From positions 1-4,648 of the IMG/VR virus record IMGVR_UViG_2645727715_000001: a DNA stretch of 4,648 bases; one strand, 5' to 3'. Below, one piece after another: positions 1 through 4,648 of the stretch (positions are counted from its first letter, which is position 1; the number at the start of each line of letters is the position of its first letter). The DNA is from a virus (lineage: Duplodnaviria > Heunggongvirae > Uroviricota > Caudoviricetes). A model generated the notes under the pieces. It was not told the DNA's origin, searched no databases, and was given only the letters and a program-made list of their open reading frames with translations. Made by a program: the position numbers and the translations under genes.

Positions 1-303
1 CTACTGGATGAACGGGAAAGGAACCAGCAATACATCAAATCCCGCGACCAGGAGAACGAGGATATTGCGCTAACGGTAGGGAAGTTGCGCGTTGAGCTTG
101 AGGCAGAAAAACAGCGGGCAAAGGATCTGTTTATGGAAAATGCTCGGCTTAAGTCAGGTATAGCCGGTCTGATACACCTCGGTATTCGATATGCAGATGT
201 TGATGTCATGAAAATTGCTGGAGATGCCCAGCTTTCTACCCCATGCACTGACAGCATCATAAACAGCATTGCAACAGGCATTCGCATCAACGGAGGTGAG
301 TAG
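1..303 (+). CDS. 5-prime-truncated ORF continuing upstream of the window; hypothetical prophage protein, C-terminal ~100 aa with a charged helical stretch (LRVELEAEKQRAKDLFMENARLKS)
   Basis: Frame 1 is open from base 1 with no stop until TAG 301-303; the tool ORF 85-303 is only its TTG-initiated tail. Same strand and orientation as all downstream genes. Confidence 0.55.
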   Translation, partial: LLDERERNQQYIKSRDQENEDIALTVGKLRVELEAEKQRAKDLFMENARLKSGIAGLIHLGIRYADVDVMKIAGDAQLSTPCTDSIINSIATGIRINGGE

Positions 304-479
304 TGCGTGTGGCATGTATTGGCTTGTTACCGTACCCGACTCGTTTTTGGGCTTCTGCGCTAATTGCAAAGCCACAGGTCCTGATGGCTGACAACATCAC
401 CCCAGCACCAAAGCGCCGCCATACCGGTATTGCAGCGGCACGACGAGCAGCAAAGAGACGCAGGAGAGCAAAGCGATGA
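303..479 (+). CDS. Possible small ORF (58 aa, GTG start) with hydrophobic N-terminus and strongly Arg/Lys-rich C-terminus (AARRAAKRRRRAKR); below the 60-aa cut-off of the ORF track
   Basis: GTG at 303 overlaps the upstream stop (taGTG) and lies 6 nt after GGAGG (292-296); frame 3 is open to TGA 477-479, which overlaps the ATG of the next gene (ATGA). It fills an otherwise unusual 172-nt gap in a coupled operon. Alternative ATG at 384. Confidence 0.3.
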   Translation: MRVACIGLLPYPTRFWASALIAKPQVLMADNITPAPKRRHTGIAAARRAAKRRRRAKR

Positions 480-664
480 AAAACCGTAAAGCAAAGATTC
501 TGTTAGTTCGTAGAAACGCTCCTGGCGTCTGGCAGTGGGTGAGACTCAGCAACCGACGGATGGGGTTAATGAAACATTACGGGATGATGGATTGTTGGTT
601 TTGCAAAAAGCCCAGCGCGGCGCAAAACCGCTGGAAAAACCACTTGCGCACTAAAGGAGAGTGA
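476..664 (+). CDS. Small very basic protein, 62 aa (16 Lys/Arg vs 2 Asp/Glu); possible nucleic-acid-binding protein, function unknown
   Basis: ATG 476 preceded by AGGAG (462-466) at 9-nt spacing; stop TGA 662-664 followed 1 nt later by ATG 666 of the next gene. Confidence 0.55.
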   Translation: MKNRKAKILLVRRNAPGVWQWVRLSNRRMGLMKHYGMMDCWFCKKPSAAQNRWKNHLRTKGE

Positions 665-670
665 TATGGC
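653..670 (+). repeat. 18-bp gene-junction repeat AAAGGAGAGTGATATGGC, copy 1 (stop of ORF 476-664, RBS and start of ORF 666-1181)
   Basis: Exact identity with 1553-1570, read directly from sequence; both upstream proteins end in KGE. Confidence 0.9.
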
Positions 671-1181
671 GTTAACACACCGCGAACTCTGTCAGATTGC
701 GTACAAGTTCCTTAAGCGCAACGGGTTCAAGGTTTGTTTTCATGACCGCTTTATAGCTGTAACCAGTACCGGAGAACAGCCAGATGCTATGGGATTCAGA
801 AATTCAGCATCATGCCTGATAGAGGCGAAATGTTCTCGTGCTGACTTGTTGGCAGATAGAAAAAAGCGTTTTCGTAAAAATCCGTCTCTTGGAATGGGCG
901 ACTGGCGATTCTTTATTAGTGAGCCGGGAATTATTTCAATTGAGGATTTACCACCTGGCTGGGGATTACTTCACGTTGTTAACGGAAGAGTACGGAAAGT
1001 ACATGGGTGGCCCAAGGGTAATTGCTGTTGGGGTAATCCTGACGATAAGCCATTTACTGGAAATAAGCAGGTTGAATGCGATTACATGTTATCTGCATTA
1101 AGGCGTATGGAGTTGAGAGGGCACCTTAATGAAATATATGACGGTGTAATTGTTAATAAGAAAGAAGGAAACGCGGCATGA
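666..1181 (+). CDS. Putative PD-(D/E)xK-fold nuclease-like protein, 171 aa, with Cys/Trp-rich C-terminal region (GNCCWGNPDD...ECDY)
   Basis: ATG 666 with AGGAG 6 nt upstream. N-terminal region shows E7, P39-D40 followed by hydrophobic residues, then hydrophobic-IEAK (E53-x-K55) followed by a basic helix (RADLLADRKKRFRK), the classic spacing of a PD-(D/E)xK core. Stop overlaps next start (ATGA at 1178-1181). Fold assignment is motif-based only. Confidence 0.7.
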   Translation: MALTHRELCQIAYKFLKRNGFKVCFHDRFIAVTSTGEQPDAMGFRNSASCLIEAKCSRADLLADRKKRFRKNPSLGMGDWRFFISEPGIISIEDLPPGWGLLHVVNGRVRKVHGWPKGNCCWGNPDDKPFTGNKQVECDYMLSALRRMELRGHLNEIYDGVIVNKKEGNAA

Positions 1182-1564
1182 TCACTATTACCAAAGAGCG
1201 ACTGCTGACAATCAAGCAGTGGCGCGAAACATACGGACCTGGTAGCAACGTTGTACTGCCAGCAGAAGAAGCGGAAGAACTGGCACGGATTGCGCTGGCA
1301 TCGCTGGAAGCAAAACCAATAGGTGCTTTCCACATTGCAGAACAGCAGGTCGATGGCACAAGTGACTACATCAAGGATGGGGAGTGGCCTATTGATAATG
1401 GAATTATTGAGGTCTACGCCGCTCCACCCGTTCCAGTAGTACCGGAAGAAAAACCAATGCCTAATCCTCTTAGCATGTACGCGGTTGATGCTGTTGCCGC
1501 TATTGCAGAGGTGAGAGGCTGGAACGCCTGCCGCGCTGCAATGCTTCAGGGAAAAGGAGAGTGA
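1178..1564 (+). CDS. Hypothetical phage protein, 128 aa; paralog of the N-terminal half of the downstream 315-aa protein
   Basis: ATG 1178 overlapping upstream stop; GAAGGA 1164-1169 as RBS. Shares MxTITxE start, ELARI(A/V)LASLEA(K/E)P and (V/L)Y(A/T)(A/T)PP(V/A)P motifs with ORF 1772-2719, including a 34/35-nt identical DNA stretch. Confidence 0.75.
   Translation: MITITKERLLTIKQWRETYGPGSNVVLPAEEAEELARIALASLEAKPIGAFHIAEQQVDGTSDYIKDGEWPIDNGIIEVYAAPPVPVVPEEKPMPNPLSMYAVDAVAAIAEVRGWNACRAAMLQGKGE
1277..1311 (+). repeat. 35-bp in-frame repeat, copy 1 (GAACTGGCACGGATTGCGCTGGCATCGCTGGAAGC)
   Basis: 34/35 identity with 1937-1971; encodes ELARIALASLEA. Confidence 0.9.
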
Positions 1565-1570
1565 TATGGC
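1553..1570 (+). repeat. 18-bp gene-junction repeat AAAGGAGAGTGATATGGC, copy 2 (stop of ORF 1178-1564, RBS and start of ORF 1566-1775)
   Basis: Exact identity with 653-670. Confidence 0.9.
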
Positions 1571-1775
1571 TATTGCCGCAAGTTACACAATGCATCTCTA
1601 TTGTGACTGCCGCCAGTGTACGGAAGGTGTATATCCAGTGCCAGACTTCGGTGAGTATATAGGTACGTCATGGGCTGGCTGTGCAAAAGAGGCGCGCAAG
1701 GATGGCTGGCGAATAAAGCAAAGACAAACGCGTGCTTTTGCGCCTGGGCATAAAGTTTTGAGGATTAACAAATGA
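1566..1775 (+). CDS. Small Cys-rich protein, 69 aa (C13-x-C15-x2-C18 ... C39); possible zinc-ribbon-like protein
   Basis: ATG 1566 preceded by the same AAAGGAGAGTGAT junction as gene 666-1181; stop TGA 1773-1775 overlaps ATG 1772 of the next gene. Confidence 0.6.
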   Translation: MAIAASYTMHLYCDCRQCTEGVYPVPDFGEYIGTSWAGCAKEARKDGWRIKQRQTRAFAPGHKVLRINK

Positions 1776-2719
1776 CCACTATTACCAGAGAACAAGCTCT
1801 GAAAATTATTGAGGCAGCCGATGAGGTTATTAGTGCGCTGGCCGGAACTAACGAGGATGTTCACCCTGGTAGCGATAACATGCTACGCCTGTGGGATGAC
1901 CTGAATGACCGTTACGCGCCGCCGGAAATTGTGCGTGAACTGGCACGGATTGTGCTGGCATCGCTGGAAGCCGAGCCTGTTCTGTATCAGTCCTGCACTC
2001 GCCCCACCTGGAATAGCGGTGTTCCGTGGACGGAATGGAAAGAACGAAGTCGTGAGTGCTACGAAGACGATTTGCGCTTTACAGACACGCCTGACCATGC
2101 CGGTTGGATATACAAATGTCGAAAACTATATACCACTCCGCCAGCGCCGATAGCGTTAGAGGCCATTGAAAACGCAATTGAATACATCCGCAGTATCGCT
2201 TTTCACATCGATGAAGACGATTACCACGGCAAACATATTGCGTATTTCATGCAGCAAGCATTGGCCTGGCTGGAAGGGCATTCATGCAGCGACGACAGAC
2301 TGGGTAAAGCCGAGAATCAACCAGTACGCGGCAACCAGGCTGCCGAATCCAATCGCGATAATGAGTGGACTGGCAATCCTGATATTGATAACGCCATCAT
2401 CATGCTCGACCGCATAGATACGCTGGAAAATTGCGATGATGACCGTATTGAGGCTGTTAAGGCTGTTTTGCGTAGACTGGCTGGCAACTATCCGGTAATT
2501 CCGGATGGTTGGATAAGCTGTAGTGAGCGAATGCCTGAGAACATTCCCGGAAGTTGTAAAGAGTATCTGGTGTTTGATGGGCTTAATAATAAAGTTCATC
2601 ACGATTACTGGGTTGTCCCTGATGGAGACAGTGCGCCAGTTGCGTCGTTCTGGAATCATTACGGGGCACATGTAACTCACTGGATGCCTCTACCAGAACC
2701 GCCGCAGGAGGCGAAATGA
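1772..2719 (+). CDS. Phage protein, 315 aa, with C-terminal DUF551-like domain (family recalled from memory) and N-terminal module shared with ORF 1178-1564
   Basis: ATG 1772 with GAGGA 7 nt upstream. C-terminus IPDGWISCSERMPE...KEYLVFDG...HHDYWVV...FWNHYGAHVTHWMPLPEPP matches my recollection of the DUF551 pattern found in enterobacterial prophage proteins. Longest ORF in the window. Confidence 0.85.
   Translation: MTTITREQALKIIEAADEVISALAGTNEDVHPGSDNMLRLWDDLNDRYAPPEIVRELARIVLASLEAEPVLYQSCTRPTWNSGVPWTEWKERSRECYEDDLRFTDTPDHAGWIYKCRKLYTTPPAPIALEAIENAIEYIRSIAFHIDEDDYHGKHIAYFMQQALAWLEGHSCSDDRLGKAENQPVRGNQAAESNRDNEWTGNPDIDNAIIMLDRIDTLENCDDDRIEAVKAVLRRLAGNYPVIPDGWISCSERMPENIPGSCKEYLVFDGLNNKVHHDYWVVPDGDSAPVASFWNHYGAHVTHWMPLPEPPQEAK
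1937..1971 (+). repeat. 35-bp in-frame repeat, copy 2 (GAACTGGCACGGATTGTGCTGGCATCGCTGGAAGC)
   Basis: 34/35 identity with 1277-1311; encodes ELARIVLASLEA. Confidence 0.9.
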
Positions 2720-2976
2720 TGGATGTAAAAGAGAAGGTTTTGCAGGTGATGCGTTCCCGGGCTGCCCTGCAAGATAAAGCTCTCGGCGGGAAATATCCAT
2801 TCAGGATGGCAACCTGGAATCTGCGGTTGGCAATGGAGAAGGAATTTCCTGATGAAGAATGGCGTTCGGCAGATTTGCGCAAAATTCTTATGGAGATGGC
2901 TAAAGATGGAACAGTATCCAAAGATACCCATGCCAGCCGGATTGGTCAGGCGGTATGGAGACTGGAGGTGAGGTAA
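2716..2976 (+). CDS. Hypothetical small phage protein, 86 aa
   Basis: ATG 2716 overlaps upstream stop (ATGA) with strong AGGAGG (2705-2710) at 5-nt spacing; stop TAA 2974-2976. Confidence 0.65.
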   Translation: MMDVKEKVLQVMRSRAALQDKALGGKYPFRMATWNLRLAMEKEFPDEEWRSADLRKILMEMAKDGTVSKDTHASRIGQAVWRLEVR

Positions 2977-3050
2977 TAAGCTGGCCTGAAGCATTTGCGA
3001 TTGTAGGCGTAGCTATGGCGATTGCCGCTATTTTTATCTTCTGGGGGTAA
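2955..3050 (+). CDS. Candidate unannotated mini-ORF, 31 aa, single predicted transmembrane helix (METGGEVISWPEAFAIVGVAMAIAAIFIFWG)
   Basis: Frame 3 ATG 2955 to TAA 3048-3050. It exactly fills the only untranslated gap between 2976 and 3053, and its stop sits 2 nt before the ATG of the next gene. No good SD for ATG 2955; GGAGGTGAG at 2964-2972 is downstream of it. Speculative. Confidence 0.25.
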   Translation: METGGEVISWPEAFAIVGVAMAIAAIFIFWG

Positions 3051-3052
3051 CG

Positions 3053-3268
3053 ATGGGAAAATTAACTTTTGTAGTCGAATTTGAGGATGGCAAAGAGCCA
3101 CCTGTTAGCGCCAATCTTGATGTTGCTGGTGGCAGGCTGGTTTCGGTTCTATTTGGTGATTACCGCGACGACTTCTTTCAGCCTGAAGAAGTTGATGTAG
3201 TGCGAGAAGCATTAAACGAGCTAAGTGTTGATAACGATGATGCTCATGCGGAAATCATCAAAAAATGA
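3053..3268 (+). CDS. Small strongly acidic protein, 71 aa (17 Asp/Glu vs 7 Lys/Arg); candidate DNA-mimic or anti-defence-type protein (hypothesis only)
   Basis: ATG 3053 preceded by GGGGGT; residue composition counted directly from the translation; stop TGA 3266-3268. Confidence 0.65.
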   Translation: MGKLTFVVEFEDGKEPPVSANLDVAGGRLVSVLFGDYRDDFFQPEEVDVVREALNELSVDNDDAHAEIIKK

Positions 3269-3332
3269 ACTGACTACTCACTAAATTATCAATTATGGTG
3301 CTATCACCTACGACACCGAGAGAAAATTTATA

Positions 3333-3455
3333 ATGTCAAAAGTAAATGTTTTGATTTTTTCAGCAATTGTTGGCTTTGGTTTTACTGCCGGAGTGCAGAT
3401 TTATATTACGTGGGAAAAAATCATCAACTACGAATGGAGTTGTTTTATTAAGTGA
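3333..3455 (+). CDS. Candidate small membrane peptide, 40 aa (MSKVNVLIFSAIVGFGFTAGVQIYITWEKIINYEWSCFIK), one hydrophobic helix
   Basis: Frame 3 ATG 3333 to TGA 3453-3455 in the AT-rich segment. Ends 7 nt before ATG 3463, and its 3-prime end contains the GAGGT that would serve as RBS for the next gene. It competes with the TTG-initiated N-terminal extension of tool ORF 3367-3756. Confidence 0.35.
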   Translation: MSKVNVLIFSAIVGFGFTAGVQIYITWEKIINYEWSCFIK

Positions 3456-3462
3456 GGTAAGT

Positions 3463-3756
3463 ATGTGGAGAGGTAATAATCATGGCAAAAGCCAGATGAT
3501 ACTTACCGAATATAAGCTAGACCACAAAACCAATAAATCACGCTCAGTATATTTGCTCCGGCACAATAGCCGCGTAAGAAATACCGTGCTGGAACAAAAT
3601 CTGACAGTTGAAATGGATAATTGCGGGGGATTCAAGCCAACAATTTCGCTTGATGATTTTCCTCGTGGTTTAAGCGAAAGAGAAGCAATGCTGAAATTAG
3701 CAGAATGGCTACAAAGATTAAGCATTGCTATTGAAGATAACTGGTCTGAACCTTAA
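3463..3756 (+). CDS. Hypothetical protein, 97 aa if started at ATG 3463 (tool call 3367-3756 uses an upstream TTG)
   Basis: Frame 1 ORF ending TAA 3754-3756; ATG 3463 has GAGGT (3454-3458) upstream, though at short spacing; alternative in-frame ATG at 3496. Followed by a perfect hairpin-forming palindrome at 3789-3805. Confidence 0.5.
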   Translation: MWRGNNHGKSQMILTEYKLDHKTNKSRSVYLLRHNSRVRNTVLEQNLTVEMDNCGGFKPTISLDDFPRGLSEREAMLKLAEWLQRLSIAIEDNWSEP

Positions 3757-3788
3757 ATTTATATGATGACACTAAAACATTTTCTTGA

Positions 3789-3805
3789 CCGCCCATTATG
3801 GGCGG
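3789..3805. repeat. Perfect 17-bp palindrome CCGCCCA-TTA-TGGGCGG (7-bp GC-rich stem, 3-nt loop); possible RNA hairpin or dimeric-protein binding site
   Basis: Read directly; located 33 nt downstream of stop 3756; a TTGACC hexamer (3785-3790) abuts it. No U-tract follows on either strand. Confidence 0.6.
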
Positions 3806-3990
3806 CAGCCGCAGGCTATGACTTTAATTATATGGATTGCATGTCTTGTACTGCCAATGCATACGACCATTCGTTCATCCTGCTGTTTAATTCTTTAAGA
3901 ATATTGCCGGAAACAGTATTTCTTAGGTGATGGAATGACTGATATTGCCAAAATGAACATTGAAGAATGGACTAAGGAATGTGAAAAGAA

Positions 3991-4146
3991 ATGGCGCAAA
4001 AAGAAATGACCAGAATCACTGAAGAGCGCATATCAGAGATTATTTCCCGTATCGAAATGTATGGTCACGGTGCTGGATATACGGCAGATGAAGTATTGGA
4101 AATAGCCCAGCAGATGCTGGCCTTGAGACAAAAAAGAGCAACATGA
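3991..4146 (+). CDS. Possible short ORF, 51 aa (MAQKEMTRITEERISEIISRIEMYGHGAGYTADEVLEIAQQMLALRQKRAT); may be a fragment of a disrupted gene
   Basis: Frame 1 ATG 3991 to TGA 4144-4146. It is overlapped by a 24-codon ORF (3935-4009, frame 2, good AGGTGA RBS) and followed by a frame 2 ORF, so the region looks frame-broken. Confidence 0.3.
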   Translation: MAQKEMTRITEERISEIISRIEMYGHGAGYTADEVLEIAQQMLALRQKRAT

Positions 4147-4162
4147 AAGCAATACGTGTAGA

Positions 4163-4552
4163 TTGAATTTTGAGCAGTGGCTGGAACAGCAACGCGGGAA
4201 AATCGATGTGGACTGTGGTTGTGTGTCCACTGAAACATTCATGCACTGGCTGCGGGTAGCTTACGAGGCTGGCAACTATCCGGATATTCCGGATAGTTCG
4301 GCGCAAGCACCAGGGAAGGGGGGGCTTCCCCGGAGAGCGGATTCGAATTAAGCCGCATGTTTACCGTGAACTGGTTAACCGCCTCCACGATACAGCGATC
4401 AAGTGTGCTGGCACCCAGCAATTACGGGAAAGAATTAGCCGCGTTTTTGGCGAAGTTATTACACCAGATCGTCATAAACAAGCCGAGAAAAGCGGTCTGG
4501 AAAGGAGTCATCTTGAAGCGGCATTAAACATTAAACCGGGCAGTACGCTAGT
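4163..4552 (+). pseudogene. Frame-disrupted or mis-sequenced gene: frame 2 ORF (4163-4351, TTG start) continues without any start codon in frame 3 from 4260 to the end of reliable sequence
   Basis: Frame 3 is open from 4260 onward but has no ATG/GTG/TTG; the frame 2 to frame 3 switch coincides with a G7 run (4318-4324). Deleting one G would join the two into one ORF (...APGKGGFPGERIRIKPHVYRELVNRLHDTAIKC...). Confidence 0.35.
4276..4296. repeat. 21-bp inverted repeat CTATCCGGA-TAT-TCCGGATAG (9-bp arms); also a direct repeat of TCCGGATA
   Basis: Read directly; lies inside ORF 4163-4351, encoding YPDIPDS. Confidence 0.5.
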
Positions 4553-4648
4553 GGGGAAAAATTTTTCCCCGGGAAAAAAATTTTTGGGGTTTTTAAAAAA
4601 ACCCCAAAAAAAGGGGCCCCCTTTTAAAAAACCCCGGGTTTTAAAAAA
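4553..4648. other. Low-complexity homopolymer-stutter tract (GGGG AAAAA TTTTT CCCC GGG AAAAAAA ...), most likely sequencing or assembly artefact at a contig/read end rather than genomic sequence
   Basis: Every base occurs in runs of 3-7, cycling through all four nucleotides for about 96 bp to the end of the window; nothing like this occurs in the preceding 4.5 kb. Confidence 0.7.

Follow-up and report, generated by a model that had tools for sequence, protein, structure and literature searches.

The window analysed here is a 4,648-nucleotide stretch of DNA (positions 1 to 4,648 of IMG/VR virus record IMGVR_UViG_2645727715_000001). It contains two exact copies of one 18-bp sequence, AAAGGAGAGTGATATGGC, each lying across the end of one gene and the start of the next. 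Comparison of this 18-mer and its surroundings across phages, plasmids and bacterial genomes indicates that it is most probably a conserved junction for translational coupling that also serves enterobacterial temperate phages as a short-homology 'linker' common to their early accessory operons. In lambdoid and Stx phages these operons would be those of the exo-xis/ea region, and in P1/P7-like phage-plasmids those of the equivalent 'hea' region. The two junctions and the four genes that flank them, labelled U (upstream) or D (downstream) followed by a cluster number, are as follows.

653..670, + strand: junction copy 1, exact AAAGGAGAGTGATATGGC, between the 62-aa and 171-aa genes
1553..1570, + strand: junction copy 2, exact AAAGGAGAGTGATATGGC, between the 128-aa and 69-aa genes
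476..664, + strand: U0, 62-aa gene upstream of copy 1, phrog_1380 (a family of unknown function), ending ...TKGE-TGA
666..1181, + strand: D0, 171-aa nuclease-like gene downstream of copy 1, starting MA, equal to Upf89.0 of phage P7
1178..1564, + strand: U11, 128-aa gene upstream of copy 2, phrog_5117, ending ...RAAMLQGKGE-stop
1566..1775, + strand: D2, 69-aa Cys-rich gene downstream of copy 2, phrog_926, starting MA

The first-pass annotation of the window had reported the 18-mer at these two positions, with upstream proteins ending KGE-stop and downstream proteins starting MA at both. The positions were confirmed, as were the protein ends, by the map of open reading frames (ORFs). No third site was found on either strand of the window allowing up to 3 mismatches, and none of 200 dinucleotide-preserving shuffles contained two matches. 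The bases bordering the two copies differ on both sides (t/a before, g/t after), which makes the repeat maximal and means that no longer duplication surrounds it.

The 18-mer parses as AAA GGA GAG TGA / T / ATG GC, that is, the K-G-E codons and stop of the upstream gene, a 1-nt spacer, and the ATG of the downstream gene followed by the GC that opens an Ala codon. The Shine-Dalgarno sequence AAGGAG is inside the upstream ORF and ends 6 nt before the ATG, and both the stop and the start codon fall within the 18-mer in the two window copies and in every context examined. This close spacing of stop and start (TGA-T-ATG) behind an internal, near-optimal AAGGAG is the arrangement expected of a junction coupled by termination and reinitiation, for which the Shine-Dalgarno spacing is 5-9 nt, and translation of the downstream gene would be coupled to termination of the upstream one. 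The 3′ sequence of 16S rRNA is well established, and its predicted duplex with the 20 nt before each junction ATG has an energy of -14.4 kcal/mol, compared with -4.1 +/- 2.8 for random 20-mers from the window and -3 to -12.3 kcal/mol for other gene starts in the window. The only stronger start in the window is at a boundary at 278-305 (-15.4 kcal/mol), where an Ea22-like gene ends. In 37 non-identical near-variants of the 18-mer, changes are concentrated at position 13 (the spacer) and positions 17-18 (the second codon), with one change in positions 1-6 (AAAGGA) and none in positions 10-12 (the stop). This pattern, with AAAGGA and the stop nearly invariant, is a signature of selection on expression.

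Contexts of the junction in phages and bacterial genomes

An exact-match scan of IMG/VR recovered at least 120 contigs with the 18-mer and 131 occurrences, including the two in the window. In 118 occurrences the sequence continued for at least 200 nt in each direction, and their 200-nt flanks were clustered by BLASTN. Results from this set, here and below, are among the matches listed. The flanks formed at least 21 upstream and at least 16 downstream DNA clusters, found in at least 47 combinations, with the window copies representing the combinations U0/D0 and U11/D2. In a four-gamete test, 54 2x2 sub-tables held all four flank combinations, and this is not explained by recurrent mutation because whole genes cannot arise in that way. 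In an ungapped identity profile anchored on the 18-mer, occurrences with the same upstream gene were about 0.95 identical up to the 18-mer, and when their downstream genes were different, identity was about 0.1-0.3 from the first base 3′ of it. Occurrences with different upstream genes had high identity downstream and, on the 5′ side, only a weak similarity of about 12-25 nt, identity reaching background within about 0-20 nt of the 18-mer. In the 4,937 pairs whose upstream and downstream flanks both differed, a median of 18 nt was shared exactly, with a maximum of 46. Similarity of the downstream genes was 0.93 with a shared upstream partner and 0.92 without one, and the flanks therefore re-assort freely. 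The check suggested by the first-pass annotation, a search for the 18-mer at gene boundaries with varying flanks in related phages, thus came out in its favour; the two outcomes named as counting against it, absence from related phages and membership of a longer duplicated flank, were not observed.

Identity of the 18-mer is circular in an exact-match set, and loci were therefore also fetched through the flanking proteins alone, which removes the ASCERTAINMENT bias. Among 80 loci encoding the 171-aa protein, the exact 18-mer preceded the ATG in 70 and a version with 1-2 mismatches in 10, behind 27 different upstream 24-mers. The exact 18-mer followed the 62-aa gene in 77 of 79 loci, in which the next gene was the 171-aa gene (33 loci), the 69-aa gene (42 loci) or one of four others, found once each. 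The opposite ends of the same genes, which are ATGA stop/start overlaps, served as controls, and neighbours vary less there: the 18-mer end and the ATGA end had 12 versus 5 neighbour clusters for D0, and 6 versus 3 for U0. The five gene clusters downstream of D0 all open with the conserved ATGACCACTATTACC (MTTIT...), itself a short shared stretch. Successive same-strand copies of the junction in the fetched loci were 196-1104 bp apart, with 23 different spacings and up to three copies per locus, and the junction appears to punctuate the operons, linking units of one or two genes. Only 8 of the 80 D0 loci had another junction within 1.6 kb, with units of 900-978 bp in between, and the usual event is therefore likely to be exchange at a single junction.

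Phage records with a 36-mer consisting of the Ea22 tail and the junction number 428, and 2,656 of 5,426 complete Escherichia coli genomes also contain it. There are up to 8 places per genome, so one cell often has several copies, and 243 of the 4,915 places in these genomes are on plasmids. The junction or variants of it are present in lambdoid phages, namely at the 3′ end of lambda ea22, between hkaG (Ea22-like) and hkaF of HK620 (2 mismatches), and in Stx phages, BP-4795 and P27. It is also found in P1/P7-like phage-plasmids, and P7 has a perfect 36-mer between upf88.3 (Ead-like) and upf89.0 (D0). P22 had no match within 4 mismatches. The end of lambda ea22 reads ...GGCATTCGCATC AAAGGAGAGTGAG ATC GG, with the ATG decayed and no coupled gene after it. 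This half-decayed junction, AAAGGAGAGTGAGATCGG, lies at lambda 29844-29874 (901-935 of our locus L352), where ATG has become ATC. Between it and ea8.5 are about 190 nt in which no gene is annotated, and it may have been left behind when a downstream cassette was lost.

A collection of genome contigs with one genome per species gave 58 matches to the 18-mer, mostly in unrelated metagenome-assembled genomes from many phyla, when about 17 were estimated to be expected by chance for an 18-mer in 2 x 596 Gb. Only those in Enterobacter (2) and Escherichia (1) look genuine. This collection is uninformative for a prophage feature, and IMG/VR, INPHARED and the complete E. coli genomes were used instead.

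At the protein level (BLASTP), 16 of the 21 upstream clusters are Ead/Ea22-like and there are about 5 protein families overall, so that the diversity of protein families upstream is smaller than the DNA clusters suggest. The Ead/Ea22-like partners (representative U12, PF13935, 65.9 bits) have a common N-terminal domain and swapped C-terminal halves, and end ...AAGIRIKGE or ...AAAGKGE. A seventeenth cluster, U2, resembles the Ea22 fragment of the window, and the other upstream partners are U0, U1 (with a weak Mom-like match), U7 and U11. Downstream there are at least 14 unrelated protein groups, which include the PD-(D/E)xK-like protein, an HNH endonuclease (D13) and small zinc-ribbon proteins, with D0 the commonest partner (39 of 118 occurrences). 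Some downstream genes (variants of D2, D14 and D15) themselves end ...KGE and are followed by another junction. The element is therefore best seen as a combination of the ea22-family 3′ end with the ribosome-binding site (RBS) of the next gene, also transferred to other gene ends.

The Ea22 proteins compared by Dydecka et al. (2020, PMC7093339) all end in K/R-G-E ('+GE') despite unrelated C-terminal domains, and the significance of this ending was stated to be unknown. The tripeptide was treated there as a protein motif and is treated here as a translated nucleotide junction: '+GE' would be AAA-GGA-GAG, the Shine-Dalgarno AAGGAG of the downstream gene read in frame, because non-Ea22 proteins followed by the junction have the same tail. 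For annotation this is a warning that a tripeptide common to the C-termini of proteins can reflect a signal in the nucleotide sequence and not a protein motif. In phrog_9263 (230 aa), the 62-aa and 171-aa proteins are fused in frame across the junction (window 476-1181), and several 240-245-aa 'Ead/Ea22-like' proteins (P0009, P0091, P0093 and P0104) carry the 171-aa domain C-terminally. Such entries may reflect genuine fusions by frameshift at the junction, or else errors of gene calling or sequencing.

The gene following copy 1 had been described as nuclease-like, and structure prediction agrees. The AlphaFold model of the 171-aa protein (pLDDT 84) gave 3dnx as its best Foldseek match (E 8.7e-6, probability 1.0), and the remaining weak matches were almost all to PD-(D/E)xK nucleases, including Hjc, the R2 endonuclease domain, HincII, Can2 and Bax1. 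D40...E53-x-K55 is invariant in 40 homologues. A search of PDB sequences with the protein found nothing significant. With a restriction-endonuclease-like alpha/beta core and a D...(D/E)-x-K catalytic motif, the two hallmarks of the PD-(D/E)xK superfamily, the protein is predicted to be nuclease-like.

Homologues of the 171-aa protein span the Enterobacterales, down to about 60% identity. Those in Cronobacter, Serratia, Morganella and Providencia prophages lie in neighbourhoods of the nin type and show 8-11 mismatches to the 18-mer, and those of E. coli F-like plasmids show 9-12. As the diverged homologues are without the junction, it belongs to the phage gene pool and not to the gene. That the junction is intrinsic to the 171-aa gene was considered and ruled out by the homologues of 60-88% identity in other genera and plasmids that lack it. 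Dependence of the junction on the 171-aa nuclease was likewise unsupported, as HK620 has a junction variant but no D0 anywhere in its genome, and as D0 is present in 44 and absent from 76 of the 120 junction-bearing stretches. The homologues on F-like conjugative plasmids (L361 1501-2016; L362-L365 1501-2019) are 67-69% identical, have a different RBS, and are located between psiA and hok (the leading region) or between traW and traU.

Klebsiella alleles (76% identity; L357-L360) have a diverged but recognisably homologous boundary, GCCGCTGGCATCAAGGTGGAGGCTGAGTGATGGC, behind at least 3 upstream genes, and in Cronobacter loci (L343-L345) CAGGGGGTGAGTGATGCC stands behind two different upstream genes. 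These strings suggest a family of host-pool-specific junctions evolving in concert. A separate homogenised version in each host-range pool is what is expected if exchange within the pool maintains the sequence.

Natural REARRANGEMENTS at the repeats

Close relatives of the window differ from it by rearrangements whose joints lie in short direct repeats. The features involved are listed here.

671..1570, + strand: 900-bp unit (D0, U11 and one junction copy) between direct repeats, precisely absent from RCS47
1178..1197, repeated at 1772-1791, + strand: conserved gene start ATGA(T/C)CACTATTACCA (M-I/T-T-I-T), the repeat at the RCS47 switch
1277..1311 and 1937..1971, + strand: 35-nt direct repeat in two copies, 97% identical, inside paralogous N-terminal domains
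1772-2719, + strand: DUF551 protein gene (315 aa), identified by domain match

BLAST comparison of RCS47 (L122) with the window showed 475-670 contiguous with 1553-1791 through a single 18-mer, and RCS47 is therefore the window minus exactly 900 bp (671-1570). The suggestion in the first-pass annotation that the genes between the copies form a swappable unit holds for this pair, in which the unit is cleanly present or absent; as a general description it falls short, given the scarcity of second junctions in the D0 loci.

The next two joints in RCS47 and the joint shared by MH422554 and P7 are in the gene-start repeat (1178/1772) and the 35-nt repeat, and all three RCS47/MH422554 joints coincide with short direct repeats of the window. 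The N-terminal part of U11 is paralogous to the N-terminus of the DUF551 protein that follows, and the 128-aa and 315-aa DUF551 genes share the N-terminal segment MxTIT...ELARIxLASLEA (also 1178-1212 / 1772-1806). From the positions of the joints, the 35-nt repeat appears to be the crossover point that gave the hybrid EaA/DUF551 genes of MH422554, RCS47 and P7, which would represent in-frame domain shuffling at a second short repeat. MH422554 (L121) also has an extra segment of about 150-170 nt relative to the window, bordered by two copies (4475-4495 and 4648-4668) of the 21 nt with which the 62-aa gene begins (window 475-495), another short direct repeat at a joint.

Explanations for the conserved junction and related systems

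Recombination at the 18-mer is inferred from these distributions and joints. A crossover inside the 18-mer would leave the upstream ORF, a correctly spaced RBS and the downstream ORF all intact, and recombinants would therefore be viable. Exchange between co-resident phages or prophages would reassort the left and right partners of the junction, and exchange or slippage between two direct copies in one genome would delete or insert the intervening gene or genes. The exchange would be homology-driven, by Rad52-like annealases (Red-beta/RecT/Erf) or RecA, or, for intragenomic deletion, by replication slippage.

Several points weigh against the 18-mer as a recombining linker. [quoted passage not shown] At least 23 nt is shared in only 29% of the pairs of unrelated contexts. 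ATGA overlaps that have no long shared sequence also vary in their neighbours, so that mosaicism at gene boundaries is not strictly linker-dependent. Moreover, 16 of the 21 upstream clusters belong to one mosaic family, and exchanges inside ea22 could give part of the upstream diversity. The exact-match contigs were ascertained on the 18-mer itself, a bias that the gene-anchored sets remove. However, the objection from short homology is eased by the Ea22-tail contexts, which share up to 46 nt, and by the large population sizes and evolutionary time available.

The same pattern could have been produced by illegitimate recombination with selection for joins at gene boundaries (the Hendrix/Juhala model), the 18-mer being kept simply as a good RBS inherited with ea22 3′ ends. 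We consider this unlikely, though with an appreciable chance of being correct. It is in keeping with the strong Shine-Dalgarno duplex, with a near-invariant AAAGGA and stop next to a variable spacer and second codon, which points to purifying selection on function, with the predominance of Ead/Ea22-like upstream partners, and with lambda, where the left half remains attached to ea22 and no coupled gene follows. The variable neighbours of ATGA overlaps also fit, and illegitimate recombination is treated as a live alternative in the literature, where phage mosaicism via short conserved sequences versus random illegitimate joining plus selection is still debated (PMC3945230). However, it needs in-register joins in the same 18 nt for at least 47 combinations. 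Positions that an RBS does not need (T13, the GC of codon 2, and the choice of synonyms in AAA/GGA/GAG/TGA) do not vary in 123 of 160 distinct contexts, which are identical at every position of the 18-mer including those free to vary, and selection on the RBS alone does not seem to account for this identity. The tail and junction also end genes that are not Ea22 (U0, U1, U7 and U11, and the D2, D14 and D15 variants), D0 homologues elsewhere use quite different RBSs, so the gene does not require the 18-mer, and the joints in RCS47 and MH422554 are all within direct repeats.

That the 18-mer is the target of a dedicated enzyme is highly improbable. In a homing-type version, the PD-(D/E)xK protein would cut empty junctions and the cassette would be copied in by repair; otherwise an integron-like site-specific system would be involved. 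Such an enzyme would be in line with the status of a PD-(D/E)xK-like protein as the commonest downstream partner, with the HNH endonuclease gene (D13) as another partner, and with the precise presence or absence of a 900-bp unit containing the nuclease gene between repeats. Yet the junction serves at least 13 downstream families other than D0, most junction-bearing stretches and HK620 lack D0, and the junction is missing at the D0 homologues of other genera and F-like plasmids. Neither dyad symmetry nor an inverted repeat of the attC kind is present in the 18-mer, and no integrase or recombinase is consistently adjacent. The chance that the repeat is coincidental, or the visible core of a longer duplication in the contig, is negligible: strings made up of a Shine-Dalgarno, a stop and a start are compositionally constrained, but the shuffles, the differing bordering bases and the recurrence in hundreds of independent phage and genome records refute it.

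A more speculative form of the linker explanation, to which we give little chance, is that the junction is a self-propagating translational linker, the ea/hea operons being an integrase-free cassette array common to the lambdoid and P1-like lineages, which are generally regarded as genetically separate, and in which exchange at a sub-MEPS 18-bp site is actively stimulated. Stimulation would come from the phage annealase during early transcription or replication of the operon, or from breaks made by the PD-(D/E)xK or HNH nucleases that are frequently adjacent.

Short conserved sequences at gene boundaries, at which homologous recombination is proposed to reassort modules, have been described in lambdoid phages as 'boundary' or linker sequences (summarised in PMC3029335 and PMC3945230). 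The junction resembles them in being a short conserved stretch between unrelated, independently assorting flanks at gene boundaries of early operons, and differs in that it is also found in P1/P7-like phage-plasmids. The idea reportedly goes back to Susskind & Botstein 1978, the modular theory of Botstein 1980, and the HK620 genome paper of Clark, Inwood, Cloutier & Dhillon 2001. As HK620 carries a junction variant, its genome paper may already list this boundary. The literal 18-mer sequence had no match in the open-access papers searched, and PMC9836094 contained nothing on breakpoints at boundaries. The junction is a clear and very well-populated example of a boundary-sequence mechanism that has long been proposed and rarely documented. 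What is new is the census (at least 57 immediate contexts, at least 14 downstream families and about half of complete E. coli genomes), the presence in P1/P7-like phage-plasmids and the in-frame reading of the Shine-Dalgarno. With dozens of natural recombinant combinations, the junction is an unusually clean, abundant and testable case for the short-homology model, and the natural two-copy/one-copy pair formed by the window and RCS47 is part of its value.

The closest mechanistic analogue is the PeSL (promoter-early stem-loop) of T4-type phages, a mobile regulatory cassette described by Arbiol et al. (2010, PMC2839356) and Comeau et al. (2014, PMC4122927), in which conserved, repeated expression signals lie on either side of small accessory ORFs in hyperplastic regions. 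PeSL are about 100 bp, intergenic, and consist of a sigma-70 promoter and a terminator stem-loop, and mini-circles have been shown (PMC2839356, PMC4122927). As in the window and RCS47, an ORF can lie between two copies in one phage where a relative has a single copy, and the proposal is that cassettes are lost or gained by recombination between copies, which supply expression signals at the same time. The junction is not a PeSL, as it is a translational element of 18 bp that overlaps the two coding sequences; no promoter-like or terminator-like site was predicted on the + strand at or near 653-670 or 1553-1570.

Integron cassettes carry attC sites, which are imperfect inverted repeats, and are exchanged site-specifically by the IntI integrase. 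They are like the genes studied here in being small, co-directional, promoterless accessory genes with a recurring site and presence or absence of single cassettes. The junction falls outside that definition, because it has no inverted repeat, is inside coding and RBS sequence, and the exchange inferred is homologous. No integrase was found in the annotated neighbourhoods of P7, RCS47, MH422554 and pB16EC0630-4. The morons of lambdoid phages (Juhala et al. 2000) are said to have their own promoter and terminator and to have been inserted by illegitimate recombination. They too are small accessory genes present in one phage and missing from a close relative, but the junction genes have no predicted promoter or terminator and are joined by a shared coupling sequence.

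Source and gene setting of the window

The source of the window is a P1-like IncY phage-plasmid and not a lambdoid prophage. Window positions 1-4551 match E. coli IncY plasmid pB16EC0630-4 (GenBank accession number CP088789) with 99.6% identity, and the matching region is among genes for a 3′-phosphatase, DNA polymerase III theta, phd/doc and pdcA, as in P1-like phage-plasmids. In phage P7 the equivalent block is downstream of an operator annotated 'Op(hea)'. The first-pass annotation had seen the junction as short homology for module exchange in lambdoid phages. The assortment of flanks at a conserved junction bears this out, although the window itself is not lambdoid. That interpretation is thus largely supported, with the qualifications that the source is P1-like, that exchange at a single junction is commoner, and that the upstream partners are mostly one mosaic family.

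The window DNA has piecewise matches of 93-97% identity to lambdoid and Stx-converting phages. Together with the presence of Ead/Ea22-like and DUF551 genes, these matches make the setting the counterpart of the lambdoid exo-xis (ea) accessory region. At 93-97% identity, the same accessory genes occur both in P1-like phage-plasmids (RCS47, SJ46 and P7-like) and in Stx phages of the lambdoid type. The recent exchanges reported by De Paepe et al. [quoted passage not shown] The accessory-gene pools of Stx-converting lambdoid phages and of P1-like phage-plasmids, which are frequent carriers of resistance genes, are connected in this way.

The genes in the window are all co-directional. For the four genes flanking the two junctions, Pfam and NCBIfam gave no match and PHROGs gave 'unknown function' families only. 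An Rfam scan of the window found no RNA family, and a structured RNA at the junction was dropped as a candidate because of this and because the flanks are too variable for a conserved structure. Two further features precede the first junction.

1-300, + strand: C-terminal part of an Ead/Ea22-like gene (PF13935, 50.9 bits versus a gathering cut-off of 27)
278..305, + strand: degenerate relative of the boundary at the end of this gene, GGCATTCGCATCAACGGAGGTGAGTAGTG, ...GIRINGGE-stop with an overlapping GTG start

The boundary at 278-305 has the GGCATTCGCATC tail, which in most Ea22-like genes stands directly before the 18-mer.

At the other end of the window, positions 4552-4648 (about 97 nt) are made up of homopolymer runs in blocks (GGGGAAAAAATTTTTCCCCGGG...TTTTAAAAAA), which fold into artificial hairpins. 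This segment has no counterpart in the 99.6%-identical CP088789 or in any phage match, all of which end at 4549-4551. It is almost certainly a sequencing or assembly artefact at the contig end, and the source of spurious 'terminator' matches. A 97-aa ORF at 3463-3756 is 56% identical (E 6e-39) to D4 (L019), which elsewhere starts directly at an exact 18-mer; in the window this ORF is preceded by GGAGAGGTAATAATCATGGC (3467-3492), which resembles a decayed copy of the junction.

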